A DNA stretch of 64,000 nt from a virus. The translations under genes were made by a program, and so were the position numbers. The DNA lies in the IMG/VR virus record IMGVR_UViG_3300033146_003479, positions 70,397 through 134,396 of that record. The stretch is one strand, 5' to 3'. Below are positions 55,257 through 63,733 of the stretch, in pieces. Below the pieces are notes generated by a model, which was not told where the DNA came from, searched no databases, and worked only from the letters and a program-made list of their open reading frames with translations. Position 1 is the first letter of the stretch; every line of letters starts with the position of its first letter.

Positions 55257-58200
55257 ATGAATGTAATTAAAAGAGATGGTAATATTGTTGCCTTTAATTG
55301 GGAAAAGATTTTTAATGCTGTTCGCAAAGCATTTGACGAGAGTGAAATAAAATATTCTAAAGAGAGTTTAGATATGATATTTGGCGATCTTAGAGATTGG
55401 TTTGACACGCAACATTATAAAAAATCAGAAATGAAAGTAGAAGATATTCAAGATCAATTGGTTATATGGATGCATAGTAATGCATATCACAATCAAGCAA
55501 TAAAATTTATGAAATATAGAGAGCGACGAAGTATTGCAAGAGGAGTCAATTCGGTAGATTCAGTTTCATTGATTGATGATTATCTAAATAAAATAAATGA
55601 TATGGATATAAATGAAAATTCATCAACAATGTGGAGTCTTCAAGGACTAAATAATCACATTTTCAGTTCGCTTTCTGAGAAATATTGGCTTAGTCTGTAT
55701 TCCGATGAAATTAAAGATGCTTTCGATAGAGGGAGAATTCATATTCATGATTTATCCACCATCGGAGGGTATACTTATTACGGAAAAGAGACTGTTATAA
55801 TTAAACGAGACGAACAGATAATATTTTCATCTTTCGAAAAATTATTTGATGATTTATTGCCGGCTATGATTCGAGAAGAATATGTGGAAAGCGACGATGC
55901 CACGATTAGATACATTCGAGATGTGAAAATATTAGATAAGAATGGATGGACAAATTTACAACGAATTATCAAAAAGCGAAAGAATAAAGATATGCGATAT
56001 ATTCGAAATGAAAATGGAAAGGATATTATAGTCACAGATGACCATCCAATGATCATCAAAGATTATGAAGAAAAAAAATCTCAAAATGTAGTTGAGAACG
56101 AAGATTCATTATTGAGCGTTGATGTTATTAATATTTTAAAGACCGAAAATGAAAAATTATTCCATAAAGATCATATTTTGTTAAGTGATGAATTTAAAAA
56201 AAGAAATATTACAAAATTTAACGATAAAAAACAAATATATTTACATGGACGCCCTATAGATTTAAATGCAGAATTTAATGATAGCGATGAATTTTATATT
56301 AATAATCAATCATCAATGACTAATAGAATTGATTTGACTTATGATTTTGGGTATTTTATTGGATTTATGCTAGCAGAAGGACATTTATCTATAAATACAG
56401 ATGATATGTTTTCACCAATAATATCAATTTCCCAAAAAGACCCTGAAAAACTCATTCAACTTCATGATATGATGAATAAAAATAATGCGTTTGGATGCAT
56501 AAAGAATAATTCTATTGTTTTTTCAAATTACTTTTTAACATTCATAATTGGTTCCATTTTCAATATTACTCCTGGATCATATAATAAAAGTTTACCTGAA
56601 AACATATTAGAATACTCTAAAGAATTCAACTTAGGAATTATCGATGGTCTTATTGATGGAGACGGATTAGCAGGAAATAATTCGTATACATTAAGATTGA
56701 ATAATAAAACCATATTAAATCAAGTTTCAACTTTATTGAGAGGGTTTGGATTTTTTCCAAAAGGACAAACTCCCTTTGGAGCAAACACTACTCATCATTT
56801 TCAAGACAAAGAAATACATCAAAATTATGATATCATGGGAATCATTTTTAGAAATGTTAATGATACTCTTAAATGCGATAAGTCGTCTAGAGTGACTCGA
56901 TCTACTTCAAAAAAAGGATGTATTGATCACTTTAAAGAGGGATGGTCTAAAGTTAATAAAAACACTATAGTTCAAATTAAAGATGAATATATTTATGATA
57001 TAACTACTCAAACTAATACTTTAATTGTTAATGATATGTGGAATCACAATTGTGCCGGCTGGGATTTGAAAGAAGTTATAACAAAAGGATTCGGAGGAGT
57101 TCCTGGGAAACCATCATCCGCTCCACCAAAACATTTTTCTTCGGCTCTAAGTCAAGCCAACAATTTCATTTTCACACTTCAAGGTGAAACTGCTGGAGCC
57201 CAAGCGTTTAGCAACTTCAATACTCTGATGGCTCCATTTGTGTTTTATGATAATCTATCATATAAGCAAGTAAAGCAAGCCATACAAGAATTCATTTTCA
57301 ATCTTAATATATCAACTAGAGTGGGATTCCAAGCCCCATTTTCAAATTTGACCTTAGATTTAGACCCATCTAAGACCAATTACGCTGATGATTATGTAAT
57401 TGTTGGTGGAGAAATGCAAGAAAAACAATATAAAGATTTTAAACGTCAATCTGAATGGATTAATACTGCAATAATTGAAACTATGGAGGCTGGCGATGCA
57501 AATGGAGCAATGCTTAGTTATCCAATAATAACGTTCAATGTAACTAAAGATTTTCCTTGGGATAACAAATTTGGAGATCTACTTTTGAAAACTACTGCTA
57601 AATATGGATCCTTTTATTTTGCTAACTATATTAATAGTGACTATTCCTCCAGCGACGTTACTTCGATGTGTTGTCGACTTAGAATTGATAGAACCGAAGT
57701 TGAAAAACACGCTAAAAGTCTACAGGGACTTGAAAGTGAAGAATATGAGACCTCTCATCAAAAGGGTGGTGGGTTTTTTGGAGCCGCACCTAAAACAGGA
57801 AGCATTGGAGTTGTAACTTTAGGATTACCTGCAATTATGCATGATGCATATCAACATGAAATTCATACCGCTAAAATATATAAACTTGATACTGATACAA
57901 CCGAACAATTAATGGAAGATGTTTGGGTAACATTTTTAGATAAAGTTAAATATTATATGGATTTAGCAATTGAATCTCTTGAAAAGAAACGAAAAGTTAT
58001 TGAACAAAAAGCAGATTTAGGATTATATCCATACCTTAAAGTTTATCTTGCTGACATTAAGAAGAAAACTGGACAATATTTCGCTCAACATTTCTCAACC
58101 ATTTGTCCGAATGGTTTTCATGAAGCATTGATTGAATGGGGATTAAAAGATGGTATGATGTCGAAAAAAGGACAAGATTATGCTGAAAAACTTCTAAAAT

Positions 58201-58718
58201 TCATGACAGAGTATTCCATCATTCTTCAAAAAGAAAATAGGTGTCTTCTTAATATAGAACAGGCTCCTGCTGAAAGTGCTGGAGTAAAATTATGTACAAA
58301 ATCGGGTATAGATCCTCTTAATAATGGATACTATACAAATTCAACTTGGTTACCTGCGGATAAACCAAAAGATACATTTGAACAAATTAATATTCAAGGT
58401 AAATTAAATGAATATTATAGTGGAGGAAGTTCTCTTCATACATATACTGATGCTGATTTAGTTCCAATCTATAAAGATTTGAAAAAAATCATTCTTTATG
58501 CATTCGAGAATACTAAATTACCATATATGACAATTAGTCCTGTGTTTAGTGTTTGTGAGAATTGTGGTAGAATCCCTGGCAGACATTCTGTTTGTCCAAA
58601 ATGCTCATCGGAAAAAATGCAAACTTTCTCCAGAGTAGTTGGATATTATAGAGCCGAATCAAACTTCAATGAAGGTAGAAGAAAAGAAGCAGAAGAGAGA
58701 TATTTTCCTAAAATTTAA
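55257..58718 (+). CDS. nrdD: class III anaerobic ribonucleotide reductase with ATP cone and cis intein
   Basis: VIKRDG ATP cone, HIHDL, CAGW, MCCRL, Zn ribbon CENC..CPKC, glycyl radical SRVVGY. Confidence 0.95.
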   Translation: MNVIKRDGNIVAFNWEKIFNAVRKAFDESEIKYSKESLDMIFGDLRDWFDTQHYKKSEMKVEDIQDQLVIWMHSNAYHNQAIKFMKYRERRSIARGVNSVDSVSLIDDYLNKINDMDINENSSTMWSLQGLNNHIFSSLSEKYWLSLYSDEIKDAFDRGRIHIHDLSTIGGYTYYGKETVIIKRDEQIIFSSFEKLFDDLLPAMIREEYVESDDATIRYIRDVKILDKNGWTNLQRIIKKRKNKDMRYIRNENGKDIIVTDDHPMIIKDYEEKKSQNVVENEDSLLSVDVINILKTENEKLFHKDHILLSDEFKKRNITKFNDKKQIYLHGRPIDLNAEFNDSDEFYINNQSSMTNRIDLTYDFGYFIGFMLAEGHLSINTDDMFSPIISISQKDPEKLIQLHDMMNKNNAFGCIKNNSIVFSNYFLTFIIGSIFNITPGSYNKSLPENILEYSKEFNLGIIDGLIDGDGLAGNNSYTLRLNNKTILNQVSTLLRGFGFFPKGQTPFGANTTHHFQDKEIHQNYDIMGIIFRNVNDTLKCDKSSRVTRSTSKKGCIDHFKEGWSKVNKNTIVQIKDEYIYDITTQTNTLIVNDMWNHNCAGWDLKEVITKGFGGVPGKPSSAPPKHFSSALSQANNFIFTLQGETAGAQAFSNFNTLMAPFVFYDNLSYKQVKQAIQEFIFNLNISTRVGFQAPFSNLTLDLDPSKTNYADDYVIVGGEMQEKQYKDFKRQSEWINTAIIETMEAGDANGAMLSYPIITFNVTKDFPWDNKFGDLLLKTTAKYGSFYFANYINSDYSSSDVTSMCCRLRIDRTEVEKHAKSLQGLESEEYETSHQKGGGFFGAAPKTGSIGVVTLGLPAIMHDAYQHEIHTAKIYKLDTDTTEQLMEDVWVTFLDKVKYYMDLAIESLEKKRKVIEQKADLGLYPYLKVYLADIKKKTGQYFAQHFSTICPNGFHEALIEWGLKDGMMSKKGQDYAEKLLKFMTEYSIILQKENRCLLNIEQAPAESAGVKLCTKSGIDPLNNGYYTNSTWLPADKPKDTFEQINIQGKLNEYYSGGSSLHTYTDADLVPIYKDLKKIILYAFENTKLPYMTISPVFSVCENCGRIPGRHSVCPKCSSEKMQTFSRVVGYYRAESNFNEGRRKEAEERYFPKI
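55773..57050 (+). mobile_element. 426 aa cis intein with LAGLIDADG homing endonuclease; begins with Thr
   Basis: Exteins rejoin as HDLSTIGGY|CAGWDL; TDDH block B, FMLAEG and GLIDGDG, IYDIT, WNHN/C. Confidence 0.88.
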
Positions 58719-59625: not shown

Positions 59626-61530
59626 TTAAAAAAGCCAACTAACATCTTCCATTGTTTTTCTTACGTCCTTTTCTTGCTGAGTTACTCTTGGAACTCCATC
59701 TTTAGCACTGATTATGAGATTTGCATTTTGATCTTTTTCTCGTTGCATATCTTCCTTGGCTTGTTGCATAACAAATGGATCTTTTCCGTTAGCAATATGC
59801 TTAAAATATTGTTGAGTTTTTGCTAAATATGAAAAATTCAATACTGTCATAGTTAAATCATCATGATATCCGGCTTCTGCTCCATATGTATATTTAATAG
59901 GATGTAATATGAAGTGATATAATTCATCGTATGCTTGAGGATCTAATATGATCAATTTTCCACTTTCAATTAAAAATTTCATATATTCAGCACCTTGCTT
60001 TTTTGTTCGCTTAGTGGTTCTAATTCCTAATTCATAATATTTTCCCTCTTTCAATTTAGATTGACTATTTAAATTTAAGTTAACAATATTTTCATATTCT
60101 AAAGTGTGCCATAAATCTTTTACTACTCCATCACCAATTGAATTATTCTCAATTAACACGTGAGCAGTATTATAATACATACCTAATTGATTGATTACAT
60201 ACGGATATTCAATGTTATTAATTCCGTCATTATAAAAAGTAGCAACTTGTTTAAATGGAACTTGAGTGATATCAAATACGGAAATAGCCGAATAATCTTG
60301 CTCTTTACCTTCTGCAACATCTACAGATAAAACATATAAATGATCTTTTATTGGAGTTCCCGAAATTTGTTTGATAGGCTTTTCAAATATTCTAAGACCT
60401 TTTATGAATTTTCCCTCTAATGTCAATTGAATATCTAAAGCGTCCACTTTAAATTCTCTTTCTAGACTCTCTAATAGTTTACCATCAATCAACATATCGG
60501 ACGTATCTAAAAAGTCGCCAGCATACTCTTGATTAAATTTCTCAATACTTCCCATTTCTTGAATTTGCTTTGCTCTCCATTCTTCATCTCTATCTGGATG
60601 AGCGTCCCATGATATTTCACTAGCAACAAAAGATGAATGACCTAATTGAGCATCTCTAAAGAATCTCCAAAAATGGTTTTTACCTTTAGGAGTCGAAGTG
60701 ATCAGAATTCGAGCAGTCACCGATGATGCAATAACAGGAAACGTCGACTCAATAAATGCTTCAACTAAGTTCTTTGGTATTAATGCAAACTCATCAATAT
60801 ATAATAACGCAATTGATTTACCTGAAATTGAGGCTGCTGATGTGGATGCCGCAATTATTTGACATCCATTCTCGAACGTTATAGAATGCTTATTGAATTC
60901 ATGTATTCCTGGCTTCAAAAACATAGGTAAATTATAATATGTTAATTTTATTCTATCAAGAATTTCCTTTGTAGTACTTTGTTTATTTGCTAATATAGCA
61001 ACATTCTTATCCTTATTGAACATCACAAATATTAAAATAAAAGCCGCGGCTACAGTAGTATTGTGACTTAATATGTCATTTGTATAAAAAGTGTGATCAC
61101 TATCATCACTTAATTGTAAATCATACATGTTTTCTTGTCTAGAGAATTTTTGGACATATTTCACTCCTTGAAGTCCCGTTTTCGTTTGAATTAAATTTCC
61201 ACATCTCAAGGATCGTAAGCGTTGCTTTTCGTGAAGATCATTCATAACTAAATGATCATCTGCTCCTCGAATTATCGAATCATCATTTAGTTTCACTTGC
61301 CACACGTCATATTGCACAGTCTTAAATGAATTCTTTACTTTATTCCAACCATTGTGACTTTTTACCCAAAATGACTCATCGAAAATAGTCTTTTCAATAA
61401 ATTTCAATTCATTATTGTTATATATTTCAACATCGTCCTGATGTCCATATTTATCATGAAATTCTCTAATAGTTATTTCCTCATAATCATATATCCAGCG
61501 TTCCAATATATGTTTTATCCACTTGAACAT
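59626..61530 (-). CDS. terL: large terminase C-part, preceded by split-intein C-fragment (157 aa, 61530-61060)
   Basis: ADDH, MYDL, ILSHN/T; then TTVAAA, ILANK, YIDEFA Walker B, TSTPKG, SVDVAEG, ENNSIG, HDDL as in T4 gp17. Confidence 0.93.
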   Translation of the reverse strand: MFKWIKHILERWIYDYEEITIREFHDKYGHQDDVEIYNNNELKFIEKTIFDESFWVKSHNGWNKVKNSFKTVQYDVWQVKLNDDSIIRGADDHLVMNDLHEKQRLRSLRCGNLIQTKTGLQGVKYVQKFSRQENMYDLQLSDDSDHTFYTNDILSHNTTVAAAFILIFVMFNKDKNVAILANKQSTTKEILDRIKLTYYNLPMFLKPGIHEFNKHSITFENGCQIIAASTSAASISGKSIALLYIDEFALIPKNLVEAFIESTFPVIASSVTARILITSTPKGKNHFWRFFRDAQLGHSSFVASEISWDAHPDRDEEWRAKQIQEMGSIEKFNQEYAGDFLDTSDMLIDGKLLESLEREFKVDALDIQLTLEGKFIKGLRIFEKPIKQISGTPIKDHLYVLSVDVAEGKEQDYSAISVFDITQVPFKQVATFYNDGINNIEYPYVINQLGMYYNTAHVLIENNSIGDGVVKDLWHTLEYENIVNLNLNSQSKLKEGKYYELGIRTTKRTKKQGAEYMKFLIESGKLIILDPQAYDELYHFILHPIKYTYGAEAGYHDDLTMTVLNFSYLAKTQQYFKHIANGKDPFVMQQAKEDMQREKDQNANLIISAKDGVPRVTQQEKDVRKTMEDVSWLF

Positions 61531-61559
61531 CTATATTACTCCATTAATTGTTATAGTGT

Positions 61560-61614
61560 TATTTATGGAAATCGGACATCAATCATTCTAATTGATTTAT
61601 ATTATTCATAAATA
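61560..61614. promoter_or_regulatory. divergent late promoters for the two terminase halves
   Basis: CATAAATA on minus strand (61560-61567) and on plus strand (61607-61614); AGGAGG SD at 61640-61645; GGAG SD before 61530. Confidence 0.7.
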
Positions 61615-62148
61615 TAATATAATATAATAATATGATATGAGGAGGTTTCATATGACAAAAAAATTATTGAACGATGATCTGGAGGTTCAAGCGTATGAGG
61701 AATTCATGCAACAGTTGGCAGCCGAAGATTGGACAAAATCAAAAAAAAGAGAAAAGCCAGATTTAGAGGATTTCACACATGATGTGAACGATAAAGAAAT
61801 CGCATTTATGGGAGATGCGAGAATAAAGCCAGCAAAAACTGAATTGCCTTTGATGAAAACAGGTAAATATGAAGAGTATGCAAAAGAAATATATCATTGT
61901 TATACTAATCCTCTATATACCATAAAAAACTACTTCAAAATTATTCATCAACAAAAGGGGCAAATCGATCTGGTTCTGTATGATTTTCAAGTTCAATTCA
62001 TTAAAAGTTGCTTGGAGAACACCAGACTCATCGCTAAATGGCCTCGACAAGTGGGCAAATGCGTTGTTGGTTCTACAAAAATTAATATTCGACGAGAATC
62101 TAAGAATTATTTTAAAAAGAATATATTAAAATTAATTAGAAAGATTGA
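61579..62148. repeat. imperfect 20 bp inverted repeat (18/20) bounding the terL N-half
   Basis: 61579-61598 TCAATCATTCTAATTGATTT vs reverse complement of 62129-62148 TCAATCTTTCTAATTAATTT. Confidence 0.75.
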
Positions 62149-62161
62149 CTCCACATTTTAA
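61652..62161 (+). CDS. terL: large terminase N-part fused to short split-intein N-fragment (33 aa, 62060-62158)
   Basis: NPLYTIKNY, LYDFQ Q-motif, KWPRQVGK Walker A start, then CVVGSTKI; AGGAGG SD. Confidence 0.9.
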   Translation: MTKKLLNDDLEVQAYEEFMQQLAAEDWTKSKKREKPDLEDFTHDVNDKEIAFMGDARIKPAKTELPLMKTGKYEEYAKEIYHCYTNPLYTIKNYFKIIHQQKGQIDLVLYDFQVQFIKSCLENTRLIAKWPRQVGKCVVGSTKINIRRESKNYFKKNILKLIRKIDSTF

Positions 62162-63176
62162 TTATCTCATTTACATGGAAATCTATTATGGAATCTTTAG
62201 TTTCATTAAAATCTTTTTCCCAAACATCATAGAAAATGACATTCTCATCGATTAATATTTGTTTTTTAATTGCATCTTTTTCCCAAATTTCATGAGCATA
62301 TTTTTTACCTATCATATCTGTTTTATTATATAATTTTGGATTTGCATGCCAATAATCTCCTTGAAATTCAATGCAATAATTTAATCTCGAAACAAAAAAG
62401 TCTAATGTGAAGGGTGAATATTTTTTATATTCTGTATTTAATTCTGCAAAGTGACATTCTTTTTGAATAAATTTAGGCAATTTATTATATATATGCCAAA
62501 ATAACTCTTGTGAAATTTGAGAATAGTTGTTAAATGACATACTATTGATCCATTTAATCTGTCTATTTTTCCAAATTTCTAATCCTTTAATTTGTCCATA
62601 TTTCAGAATACATTTGTCCTTTGAAAAGGTACATTGTCGTTCGCTTAATTTTAGACGAGCATCTTCTTCATTATATCCTTGATTTATCCAATATAATAAC
62701 GTGGTACTATTATTGCCATTATTTTTATGACTATTTGAGTTTTTCATTTTCACTTGTTCAATTTTCAATCTTATATTATCCGACGAAAGGTGTTCATAAT
62801 TAAGATACTTCAAACTCATCGGACTAAATTTGCCTTGATGATCGTATGCAACATTTAATTTACCTTTCATTCGGTTGGAAGCCGATGTTTGATATTTTTC
62901 GGATCGAACATCGTTTGATGTTAAATTATATTTCAAATAGTATTCTTCAATTTTAATATTATGAGTTACTGTAATGTGTGGAATTAAATCATTCTCACTA
63001 GCAAATCCGCAAATTTCGCATCGAATGACATCGCTTCGATTTGAATATTTAATCTTGTTTTTTGTTAAATCTCGTTGACGACGTTTTATAATGGAACATT
63101 GACGACATAACTTTTGATATCCTCGTTTGCTTTTATCAATGAATGTATTTTGACAAGTTAAACAAATTTTCTCCAT
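62136..63176 (-). CDS. free-standing homing endonuclease, Vsr-like PD-(D/E)xK (EDxHD-type), with N-terminal zinc fingers
   Basis: CxxC..CxxC and C2H2 fingers; LDFF..CIEFQGDYWHAN..KD..K..VWE. Confidence 0.8.
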   Translation of the reverse strand: MEKICLTCQNTFIDKSKRGYQKLCRQCSIIKRRQRDLTKNKIKYSNRSDVIRCEICGFASENDLIPHITVTHNIKIEEYYLKYNLTSNDVRSEKYQTSASNRMKGKLNVAYDHQGKFSPMSLKYLNYEHLSSDNIRLKIEQVKMKNSNSHKNNGNNSTTLLYWINQGYNEEDARLKLSERQCTFSKDKCILKYGQIKGLEIWKNRQIKWINSMSFNNYSQISQELFWHIYNKLPKFIQKECHFAELNTEYKKYSPFTLDFFVSRLNYCIEFQGDYWHANPKLYNKTDMIGKKYAHEIWEKDAIKKQILIDENVIFYDVWEKDFNETKDSIIDFHVNEIIKMWSQSF

Positions 63177-63733
63177 TAACTGCTTAGAACTTTAATATTA
63201 GATTTTTTCTGTGCTTCAATGGTTCGCCTTTCCATATTTAACTCAATCATAGATGAAATTAAATCATTTGTATTTTGAATAGTCGCTACACTACCTTCAA
63301 GTGTACCATTATTCTCAACTTTCACGTTTATCTTATTCGCTGGGACTTCAATGACTGCCATATTTAATTCAGAAACCATCTGAAACATTTTGGCTAAAAC
63401 TTCAAATGCCATATGTTTATTTGAAAGATTGCTAATCACAGTTACCATATATTCATTTAACATGAATTTGGCTTTCTCAAGAAGTTCGATTTTGTTTTCA
63501 AGAACATACTTATCTAAGTCCTCTTGATCAACTTGAGATTTTAACATATCTATTTTCAGTTGGATTTGATTTAATTTTTCTTGACGTAACTTTTCAACTT
63601 CCTCATCTGACATTTCTAATATTTCATTTATATTTTGACTATTGGAGTTTGCTGAAGGTATAGTATCTCTAGCAATTGATATTCCTCCTCGAATTAGATC
63701 ATCAATACTGGAATTATTATTTTCATTTGACAT
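63176..63733 (-). CDS. terS: probable small terminase subunit, T4 gp16-like
   Basis: AFEVLAKM..NN..TNDL pattern, helical; position upstream of the terL locus; TAATG coupling to the endonuclease. Confidence 0.6.
   Translation of the reverse strand: MSNENNNSSIDDLIRGGISIARDTIPSANSNSQNINEILEMSDEEVEKLRQEKLNQIQLKIDMLKSQVDQEDLDKYVLENKIELLEKAKFMLNEYMVTVISNLSNKHMAFEVLAKMFQMVSELNMAVIEVPANKINVKVENNGTLEGSVATIQNTNDLISSMIELNMERRTIEAQKKSNIKVLSS

Follow-up and report, generated by a model that had tools for sequence, protein, structure and literature searches.

In an uncultured T4-like phage, known from the IMG/VR virus record IMGVR_UViG_3300033146_003479, the gene of the large terminase (terL), the DNA-packaging motor, lies in two pieces, terL-N and terL-C, arranged head to head on opposite strands. 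The probability that these pieces are one terL, broken within its Walker A motif by a class-1 intein of the atypically split kind, transcribed as divergent, separate units, and restored by protein trans-splicing, is estimated here at about 0.68. The stretch of DNA that was analysed, termed the window, is the last 64 kb of this 134,396-bp record, which is linear, approximately 60% complete by estimate, 31.6% in G+C, and ~95% coding. Judged from its sequence, the locus is real and probably functional by trans-splicing.

The terL-N and terL-C genes and their start signals

The terL-N gene (61652-62161, + strand) comprises an N-extein (61652-62059), an N-intein (62060-62158), and a stop codon (62159-62161). 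Its likeliest start is the ATG at 61652, preceded 6 nt upstream by AGGAGG, in agreement with the called protein P0001 (169 aa). The 169-aa product consists of TerL residues 1-136, ending in PRQVGK, and of a 33-aa N-intein; the 3' part of the open reading frame (ORF) reads ...KWPRQVGK/CVVGSTKINIRR...STF before the stop, a slash marking here and below the junction between extein and intein. The terL-C gene (59626-61530, - strand) starts with a C-intein (61060-61530), followed by a C-extein (59629-61059). Its 634-aa product, M...YTNDILSHN/TTVAAAF, harbors a 157-aa C-intein and a 477-aa C-extein that begins at TTVAAAF and holds the remaining part of the ATPase and the nuclease domain. The C half matches the Pfam families Terminase_6N (74.9 bits, cut-off 22) and Terminase_6C (38.8 bits, cut-off 22.6) and displays the ATPase and RNaseH-like nuclease domains of a T4-type large terminase (gp17).

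Two comparisons tie the halves together. PHROG families 5989 and 36964, both terL families, match both halves, and in one 890-position PHROG family the N half aligns at positions 27-99 and the C half at positions 414-848. When the intact, intein-free TerL of Pseudomonas phage Milchi is compared to the whole record, exactly two matches are found, covering its residues 28-158 on the + strand and 154-546 on the - strand, and meeting at the Walker A motif. A single terL query is thus covered by two complementary matches, and the two genes are therefore pieces of one terL. The first-pass annotation of the window had proposed a terL carried as two head-to-head genes on opposite strands, and the ORFs and junctions are as it described. 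It had also predicted that splicing rebuilds the Walker A sequence RQVGKTT. Joining the exteins in silico (136 + 477 = 613 aa) indeed gives a P-loop reading PRQVGK-TT: the motif (RQxGK[ST]T) is divided GK/TT between the two genes and would be whole only in the predicted spliced product, PRQVGK-TTVAAAF.

The divergent spacer (61531-61651, 121 bp) contains the start signals of both genes. On the terL-C side, a late-promoter-like CATAAATA (61560-61567, - strand) lies 29 nt before the ATG, and a Shine-Dalgarno sequence GGAG (61539-61542, - strand) 8 nt before it. On the terL-N side, a second CATAAATA (61607-61614, + strand) is found 37 nt before the ATG at 61652, with a Shine-Dalgarno sequence AGGAGG at 61640-61645 (+ strand). 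The presence of a Shine-Dalgarno site and a late-promoter-like motif for each half within these 121 bp, as first annotated, is thus borne out. The shorter motif ATAAATA is found ahead of 27 gene starts in the record, at 13-42 nt upstream in 25 cases and overlapping the ATG in two, and a GGAG usually follows it; both terL halves have it at the usual distance from the start, together with a Shine-Dalgarno site. Within 60 nt upstream of a same-strand start, 11 of 32 occurrences of TATAAATA and 6 of 25 occurrences of CATAAATA are found, and such zones cover ~2.6% of strand positions. This enrichment far exceeds the expectation, and the motif is therefore beyond chance. From their sequence and position, the ATAAATA-type motifs fit T4-type late promoters. 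The locus shows no enrichment of sigma-70-like promoters or intrinsic terminators.

The intact state of both ORFs, start signals included, bears on a different explanation, in which the locus is a relic undergoing decay, with the functional terminase encoded in the absent ~40% of the genome, or the contig derives from a defective variant. The record is indeed a 60%-complete linear fragment, and the N-inteins of one related lineage (P0003 versus P0004, see below) differ in a frameshift-like manner. Such decay is nonetheless very improbable: the N half is 56% identical to that of the independent ENA assembly L008, N-intein included, a probable gene of the small terminase (terS) adjoins the locus, and two terL genes are present in no T4-like phage examined here. 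An intact terL elsewhere, which the first-pass annotation had named, in combination with halves that do not splice, as fatal to its proposal, is not found in the 134-kb record, which contains no second terL.

The intein and the predicted association of its halves

The break lies at RQVGK/C on the N side and at SHN/TT on the C side, as placed by alignment with an intein-free TerL, with the TerL of Dickeya phage LIMEstone1, which carries a one-piece intein, and with other split relatives. The 33-aa N-intein is composed of CVVGSTKINIRR and a 21-aa amphipathic tail. The residues of class-1 inteins (HINT fold) are all found: Cys1 (in CVVGST), the block-B His (in ADDH), and the terminal SHN/T. Across the intein family, split members included, C1, H93, H156-N157, and T158 are invariant. 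The C-intein profile matches the solved inteins gp41-1 (5.9e-11), VidaL (6VGV, 1.7e-10), and CatC (6DSL, 4.6e-7), and gp41-1 is also the nearest solved relative in a single-sequence search. With an N-intein of less than ~40 aa (33 aa) and a 157-aa C-intein possessing blocks B, F, and G, it is, by its sequence features, an atypically split class-1 P-loop intein.

A one-piece homologue occupies the identical GK/C...SHN/TT site in cultured phages, namely LIMEstone1 and its relatives, Vibrio phage BX-1, and Escherichia phage ELT3. As these phages are viable with the intein in their TerL, the intein family must splice there. The split-pair form is found in many uncultured phages. Same-site one-piece inteins, split pairs, and kept catalytic residues, together with the modelled binding described next, fit the earlier proposal of a trans-spliced TerL.

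The two halves are predicted to associate. A complex model of C-half residues 1-330 and N-half residues 70-169 scores 0.77, against 0.00 for the best of three controls; of 80 solved complexes, 58 attain this mark, as do 2 of 110 mismatched pairs, counts that are approximate, own alignments having been used. Model runs show at least 85% contact agreement, and the partner reaches a predicted local distance difference test (pLDDT) value of at least 75. This pass may echo the likeness to solved split-intein structures, and not the pair’s own behaviour. The tightest modelled contacts are those of N-half residues 140-147 (the first intein strand) with C-half residues 16-22, while further contacts, spaced as in helices, connect the N-intein tail (155-169) with a leader of the C-intein (6-15). 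In the model, the effective split seems to fall in the turn of the first hairpin, earlier than in AceL-TerL or in the Vibrio phage vB_VmeM-32 (see below).

Since the modelled interface is extensive and also contains extein-extein contacts, the halves might form a non-covalent two-chain terminase, held together by the intein halves or the ATPase fold without splicing. Two-chain phage enzymes devoid of inteins do work, as documented for NrdA of phage Aeh1 and gp43 of T4-like phages (Dassa et al. 2009, PMC2677866). Such an assembly is improbable here: the break is within the P-loop (GK/TT), where an unspliced intein of ~190 aa would occupy the ATP site, and the invariance of the splicing residues across split members argues for selection on catalysis.

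Trans-splicing thus remains the preferred reading, and its steps can be outlined from sequence and comparison. Late in infection, a separate T4-type late promoter (CATAAATA) would drive the transcription of each half and a separate Shine-Dalgarno sequence its translation, yielding a 169-aa protein (TerL 1-136 and the 33-aa N-intein) and a 634-aa protein (the 157-aa C-intein and TerL 137-613). N-half residues 140-147, the first β-strand, would pair with C-intein residues 16-22, and the tail and the leader would probably pack as helices. Cys1, the block-B His, the terminal His-Asn, and Thr+1 would then carry out trans-splicing, releasing a 613-aa TerL with an intact P-loop, RQVGK-TT.

Among the closest known parallels are AceL-TerL, GOS-TerL, Cat, and VidaL, which are likewise naturally split phage-gene inteins with a very short N-intein and a long C-intein; the N-inteins of AceL-TerL and GOS-TerL are 25 and 37 aa long, respectively (PMC11766414). 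In contrast to the AceL-TerL kind, the break is modelled here earlier, in the turn after the first β-strand, with extra helices on both sides. Furthermore, the +1 residue is a Thr, and the site, the Walker A motif, may be a further difference. An effective N-intein this short, of ~12 residues and a helical tail, could be of interest for the engineering of protein ligation.

In a related split-intein subfamily, hydrophobic or amphipathic helices flank the break on both sides. Split inteins of terL flanked by long helices are observed in the IMG/VR loci L100, L105, L154-L158, L165, L166, and L174, an example being ...KIKYNLWKLYDLI at the end of the N-intein and ...LIEKWEY at the start of the C-intein, and the intein of the window has both features. 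These paired helices may be a natural association aid, a kind of zipper, for the fragments. Assigning the N-intein tail to a degenerate second strand and helix of the intein was considered and tentatively dropped for a tail helix shared with the helix-flanked subfamily.

Several metagenomic relatives depart from this architecture. The N halves P0003 and P0004 (L009:4068-4715) are identical outside the N-intein, where they differ as if by compensating frameshifts, and their block A sequences are non-canonical (CESSMIL and CFFYKSL), which hints at a relaxed constraint on the N-intein in this lineage. Protein P0009 (760 aa, metagenomic) combines in one ORF the C-intein, the ATPase part of TerL, the start of a second intein (C/VGENTFINIYD), and an in-frame zinc-finger and DUF559/Vsr-like endonuclease; it is possibly an intermediate between free-standing and intein-embedded endonucleases. 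Protein P0011 (349 aa, metagenomic) carries the same C-intein (...YTNDILSHN/TTV) fused to a non-terminase protein, so that this intein family has passed from one P-loop host gene to another. The same family also splits a ClpA/ClpB-like AAA+ gene at its Walker A motif (GDPGVGK/C ... SHN/TA), at L007:3586-8163 (IMGVR_UViG_3300021142_002226; also in L006), with the gene of a 497-aa Vsr-like endonuclease between its co-directional halves.

Layouts of split terL genes and the inverted repeat

In the window, the - strand order is terS, a putative Vsr-like endonuclease gene, terL-N (inverted), and terL-C. In a survey of 80 IMG/VR loci carrying this intein family, a split terL of which both halves can be seen occurs at 53, in every case with co-directional halves; these are adjacent at 22 of the 53 loci and separated by an endonuclease-gene-sized gap at 31. 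The other 27 loci are one-piece inteins (9), contigs with too little upstream sequence (10), or inteins in other P-loop genes (8). A set of 80 metagenome contigs adds three split loci, all co-directional, and loci reached through the protein database (L009, L010/L011, L013, and the P0012 contigs) are co-directional as well. In L008, whose N half is the closest relative (56% identity, N-intein included: CVVGSTKINIR versus CVVGDTKIKVR), nrdD, two small genes, and terL-N follow each other on one strand, and convergent genes come next. No terL-C is found downstream of terL-N in L008, and the orientation of terL-N relative to nrdD is alike in L008 and the window. In L096, which holds the closest relative of the C half, 27 nt separate terL-C from the endonuclease gene upstream of it, and terL-N does not intervene.

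The co-directional loci agree with the fractured genes defined by Dassa et al. (2009, PMC2677866), in which the halves keep their original orientation with an endonuclease gene between them, and which include a phage terminase among their hosts. The locus of the window resembles these by its split-intein phage gene and its free-standing Vsr-like homing-endonuclease gene. It departs from the definition by its divergent halves and by the position of the endonuclease gene, which is found on the far side of terL-N, converges with it, and overlaps it by 26 bp. In LIMEstone1, the gp17 locus shows the order terS, homing-endonuclease gene, terL, with a homologous intein at the same P-loop site; unlike in the window, the intein is unsplit there, the genes all point the same way, and the endonuclease, at 19% identity, is from a different family.

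Opposite-strand halves have precedents. In Synechocystis sp. PCC6803, dnaE-n and dnaE-c lie far apart on opposite strands and are rejoined by trans-splicing (PMC3207474). This is also an essential enzyme made from two opposite-strand genes by protein trans-splicing, but the gene is cellular, its halves are distant, the split is canonical (long N-intein, short C-intein), and neither an associated endonuclease gene nor a shared divergent promoter region is present. A further precedent is vB_VmeM-32 (KU160494.1), a cultured T4-like Vibrio phage with the same intein family as the window, the same GK/C...SHN/TT site, and halves on opposite strands: terL-N accompanies the terS block (- strand, 80 kb), and terL-C accompanies gp18-gp20 (+ strand, 1.1 kb). 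Separated halves are thus viable. Contrary to the window, the halves are not head to head but ~77 kb apart, in separate late-gene blocks; the split falls after the first helix, giving a longer true N-intein, and the C half possesses a second, one-piece intein after the Walker B DE. These halves are found at L001:5683-6360 and L005:1102-3216, the N half being annotated as "hypothetical protein similar to terminase"; the record carries no annotation of the split, and the paper on this phage (PMC6483233) mentions neither inteins nor the terL split.

These precedents qualify what the first-pass annotation had stated of known split terL genes. Their co-direction holds for the surveyed loci and fails for vB_VmeM-32, and the novelty of the arrangement was overrated, Synechocystis dnaE and vB_VmeM-32 being opposite-strand already. 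The head-to-head layout is rare and unusual, but not unprecedented. The principle is already known, opposite-strand split-intein genes having been described since Synechocystis dnaE; the locus opens no new one, and the divergent layout is a variant, with a repeat-bounded half-gene cassette as its distinctive extra.

This cassette is delineated by an inverted repeat. Its left arm (TCAATCATTCTAATTGATTT, 61579-61598, 20 nt) lies between the two promoter motifs, and its right arm (62129-62148, complementary at 18 of 20 positions) within the 26-bp overlap of terL-N and the endonuclease gene, so that the 550-bp cassette encloses terL-N, its promoter, and its Shine-Dalgarno sequence. Only five such repeats (spacer of 300-1500 nt) are found in the 134 kb, two of them part of one large element, and the chance expectation of a repeat tightly flanking terL-N is ~1e-4 to 1e-3, by a post hoc estimate. 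Judged from its sequence and position, the repeat is likely the footprint of an inversion. Of the features of invertible segments of the Hin/Gin/Cin type, the border repeat (18/20) is found; no match to the serine and tyrosine recombinase families Resolvase and Phage_integrase occurs in the 134-kb record, itself 60% complete. No comparable repeat surrounds terL-N in L008.

A flip of the cassette was simulated. The endonuclease ORF remains unchanged (346 aa), terL-C is untouched, and terL-N stays open, ending in ...IRKIDVRFP 32 nt before the ATG of terL-C. The flipped layout resembles the LIMEstone1 order terS, endonuclease, terL, and its junction would read ...GGAAATCGGACA, the repeat, and TAATATATTC.... 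The cassette may therefore invert, or may have inverted recently, in the phage population, both orientations being viable because trans-splicing lifts the constraint on gene order and strand; this proposal is tentative, and rated as rather unlikely. If true, it would offer a natural snapshot of a split intein letting an essential gene separate and scatter, towards layouts like that of vB_VmeM-32.

The same observations can be turned against the assembled layout: the orientation seen may not be the form, or not the sole form, of the locus, the cassette flipping, having flipped, or having been misplaced by the assembler, with a co-directional working layout. The repeat brackets terL-N with its promoter and Shine-Dalgarno sequence, it is improbable by chance, its flip leaves all three genes open, and every other surveyed split locus is co-directional. 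This explanation is nonetheless unlikely. At 20 nt, two of them mismatched, the repeat is too short to mislead the usual assemblers, no serine or tyrosine recombinase accompanies it in the incomplete record, and L008 presents terL-N alone, co-oriented with nrdD, without such a repeat. Furthermore, trans-splicing would be needed in either orientation, so that a flip alters the layout and not the mechanism.

The head-to-head form itself is quite likely real. It is favoured because the start signals of both genes face the correct way, because no single misjoin gives back the canonical order, terL-N also opposing the endonuclease gene and terS within one contiguous 2.4-kb block, because the flanking repeat is too short and imperfect to fool an assembler, and because L008 independently shows terL-N unlinked from terL-C. 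A misassembly via long inverted repeats was rejected, the longest flanking repeat being the 20-nt one with two mismatches. A single inversion of a block of terL-N and the endonuclease gene from the canonical order was rejected as well, as it would place the endonuclease gene on the + strand, while it is on the - strand.

Several points weigh against a head-to-head, trans-spliced terL. The layout is known from one metagenomic assembly, and an exact 24-nt scan of IMG/VR with the 5' region of terL-C returns no match in a second assembly. The contig, a metagenomic one, ends 2-4 kb from the locus, and a second terL is possible in the absent ~40%. All other surveyed split loci with both halves visible (56 of 56) are co-directional, and the simulated flip gives co-directional terS, endonuclease gene, terL-N, and terL-C. 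On the side of the intein, the Thr of the block-B TxxH motif is replaced by an Ala, a replacement found family-wide, cultured phages included. By blastn, the locus has no match in the phage collection, and a single-sequence scan of IMG/VR with the N half returns no relative.

If the halves are trans-spliced, joining takes place at the protein level, which frees both genes to change place and strand. In this proposed sequence of events, terL-N would have been inverted between the endonuclease gene and terL-C, probably through recombination between the arms of the 20-nt inverted repeat or through the repair of an endonuclease cut. More generally, the halves of an essential phage gene broken by a split intein are no longer genomically tied, and can invert, gain their own promoters, and scatter. 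Annotation pipelines that expect one terL will miss or mislabel such split genes.

Neighbouring genes

Beyond terL-N, a gene on the - strand (62136-63176) encodes a putative Vsr-like (DUF559/EDxHD-type) free-standing homing endonuclease with N-terminal zinc fingers. This gene and terL-N are convergent, and their 3' ends form the 26-bp overlap mentioned above. The encoded protein is 41% identical to that of the ORF found between the terL halves in L009 and contains the motif IEFQGDYWH. It has no Pfam match over the cut-off; its relatives match DUF559 and Vsr, the aligned relative from L010 reaching 27.6 bits for DUF559 (cut-off 20.6). Its profile weakly matches the Vsr-like homing endonuclease of PDB entry 3r3p (E 0.014) and 1vsr (~0.15).

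The next gene (63176-63733, - strand), with an ATAAATA 31 nt upstream, is a probable terS (gp16-like). Its product matches that of the gene directly upstream of terL-N in L009 (phmmer, 7e-27) and, weakly, the annotated TerS of vB_VmeM-32.

On the other side of the terL locus, the window harbors a gene for NrdD (class III ribonucleotide reductase, 55257-58718, + strand, 1153 aa). This protein carries a large in-frame insert with LAGLIDADG-like motifs, ending in ...NHN/CAGW, which is probably a one-piece intein. The NrdD homologue of L008 possesses an additional insert of ~300 aa at another position.

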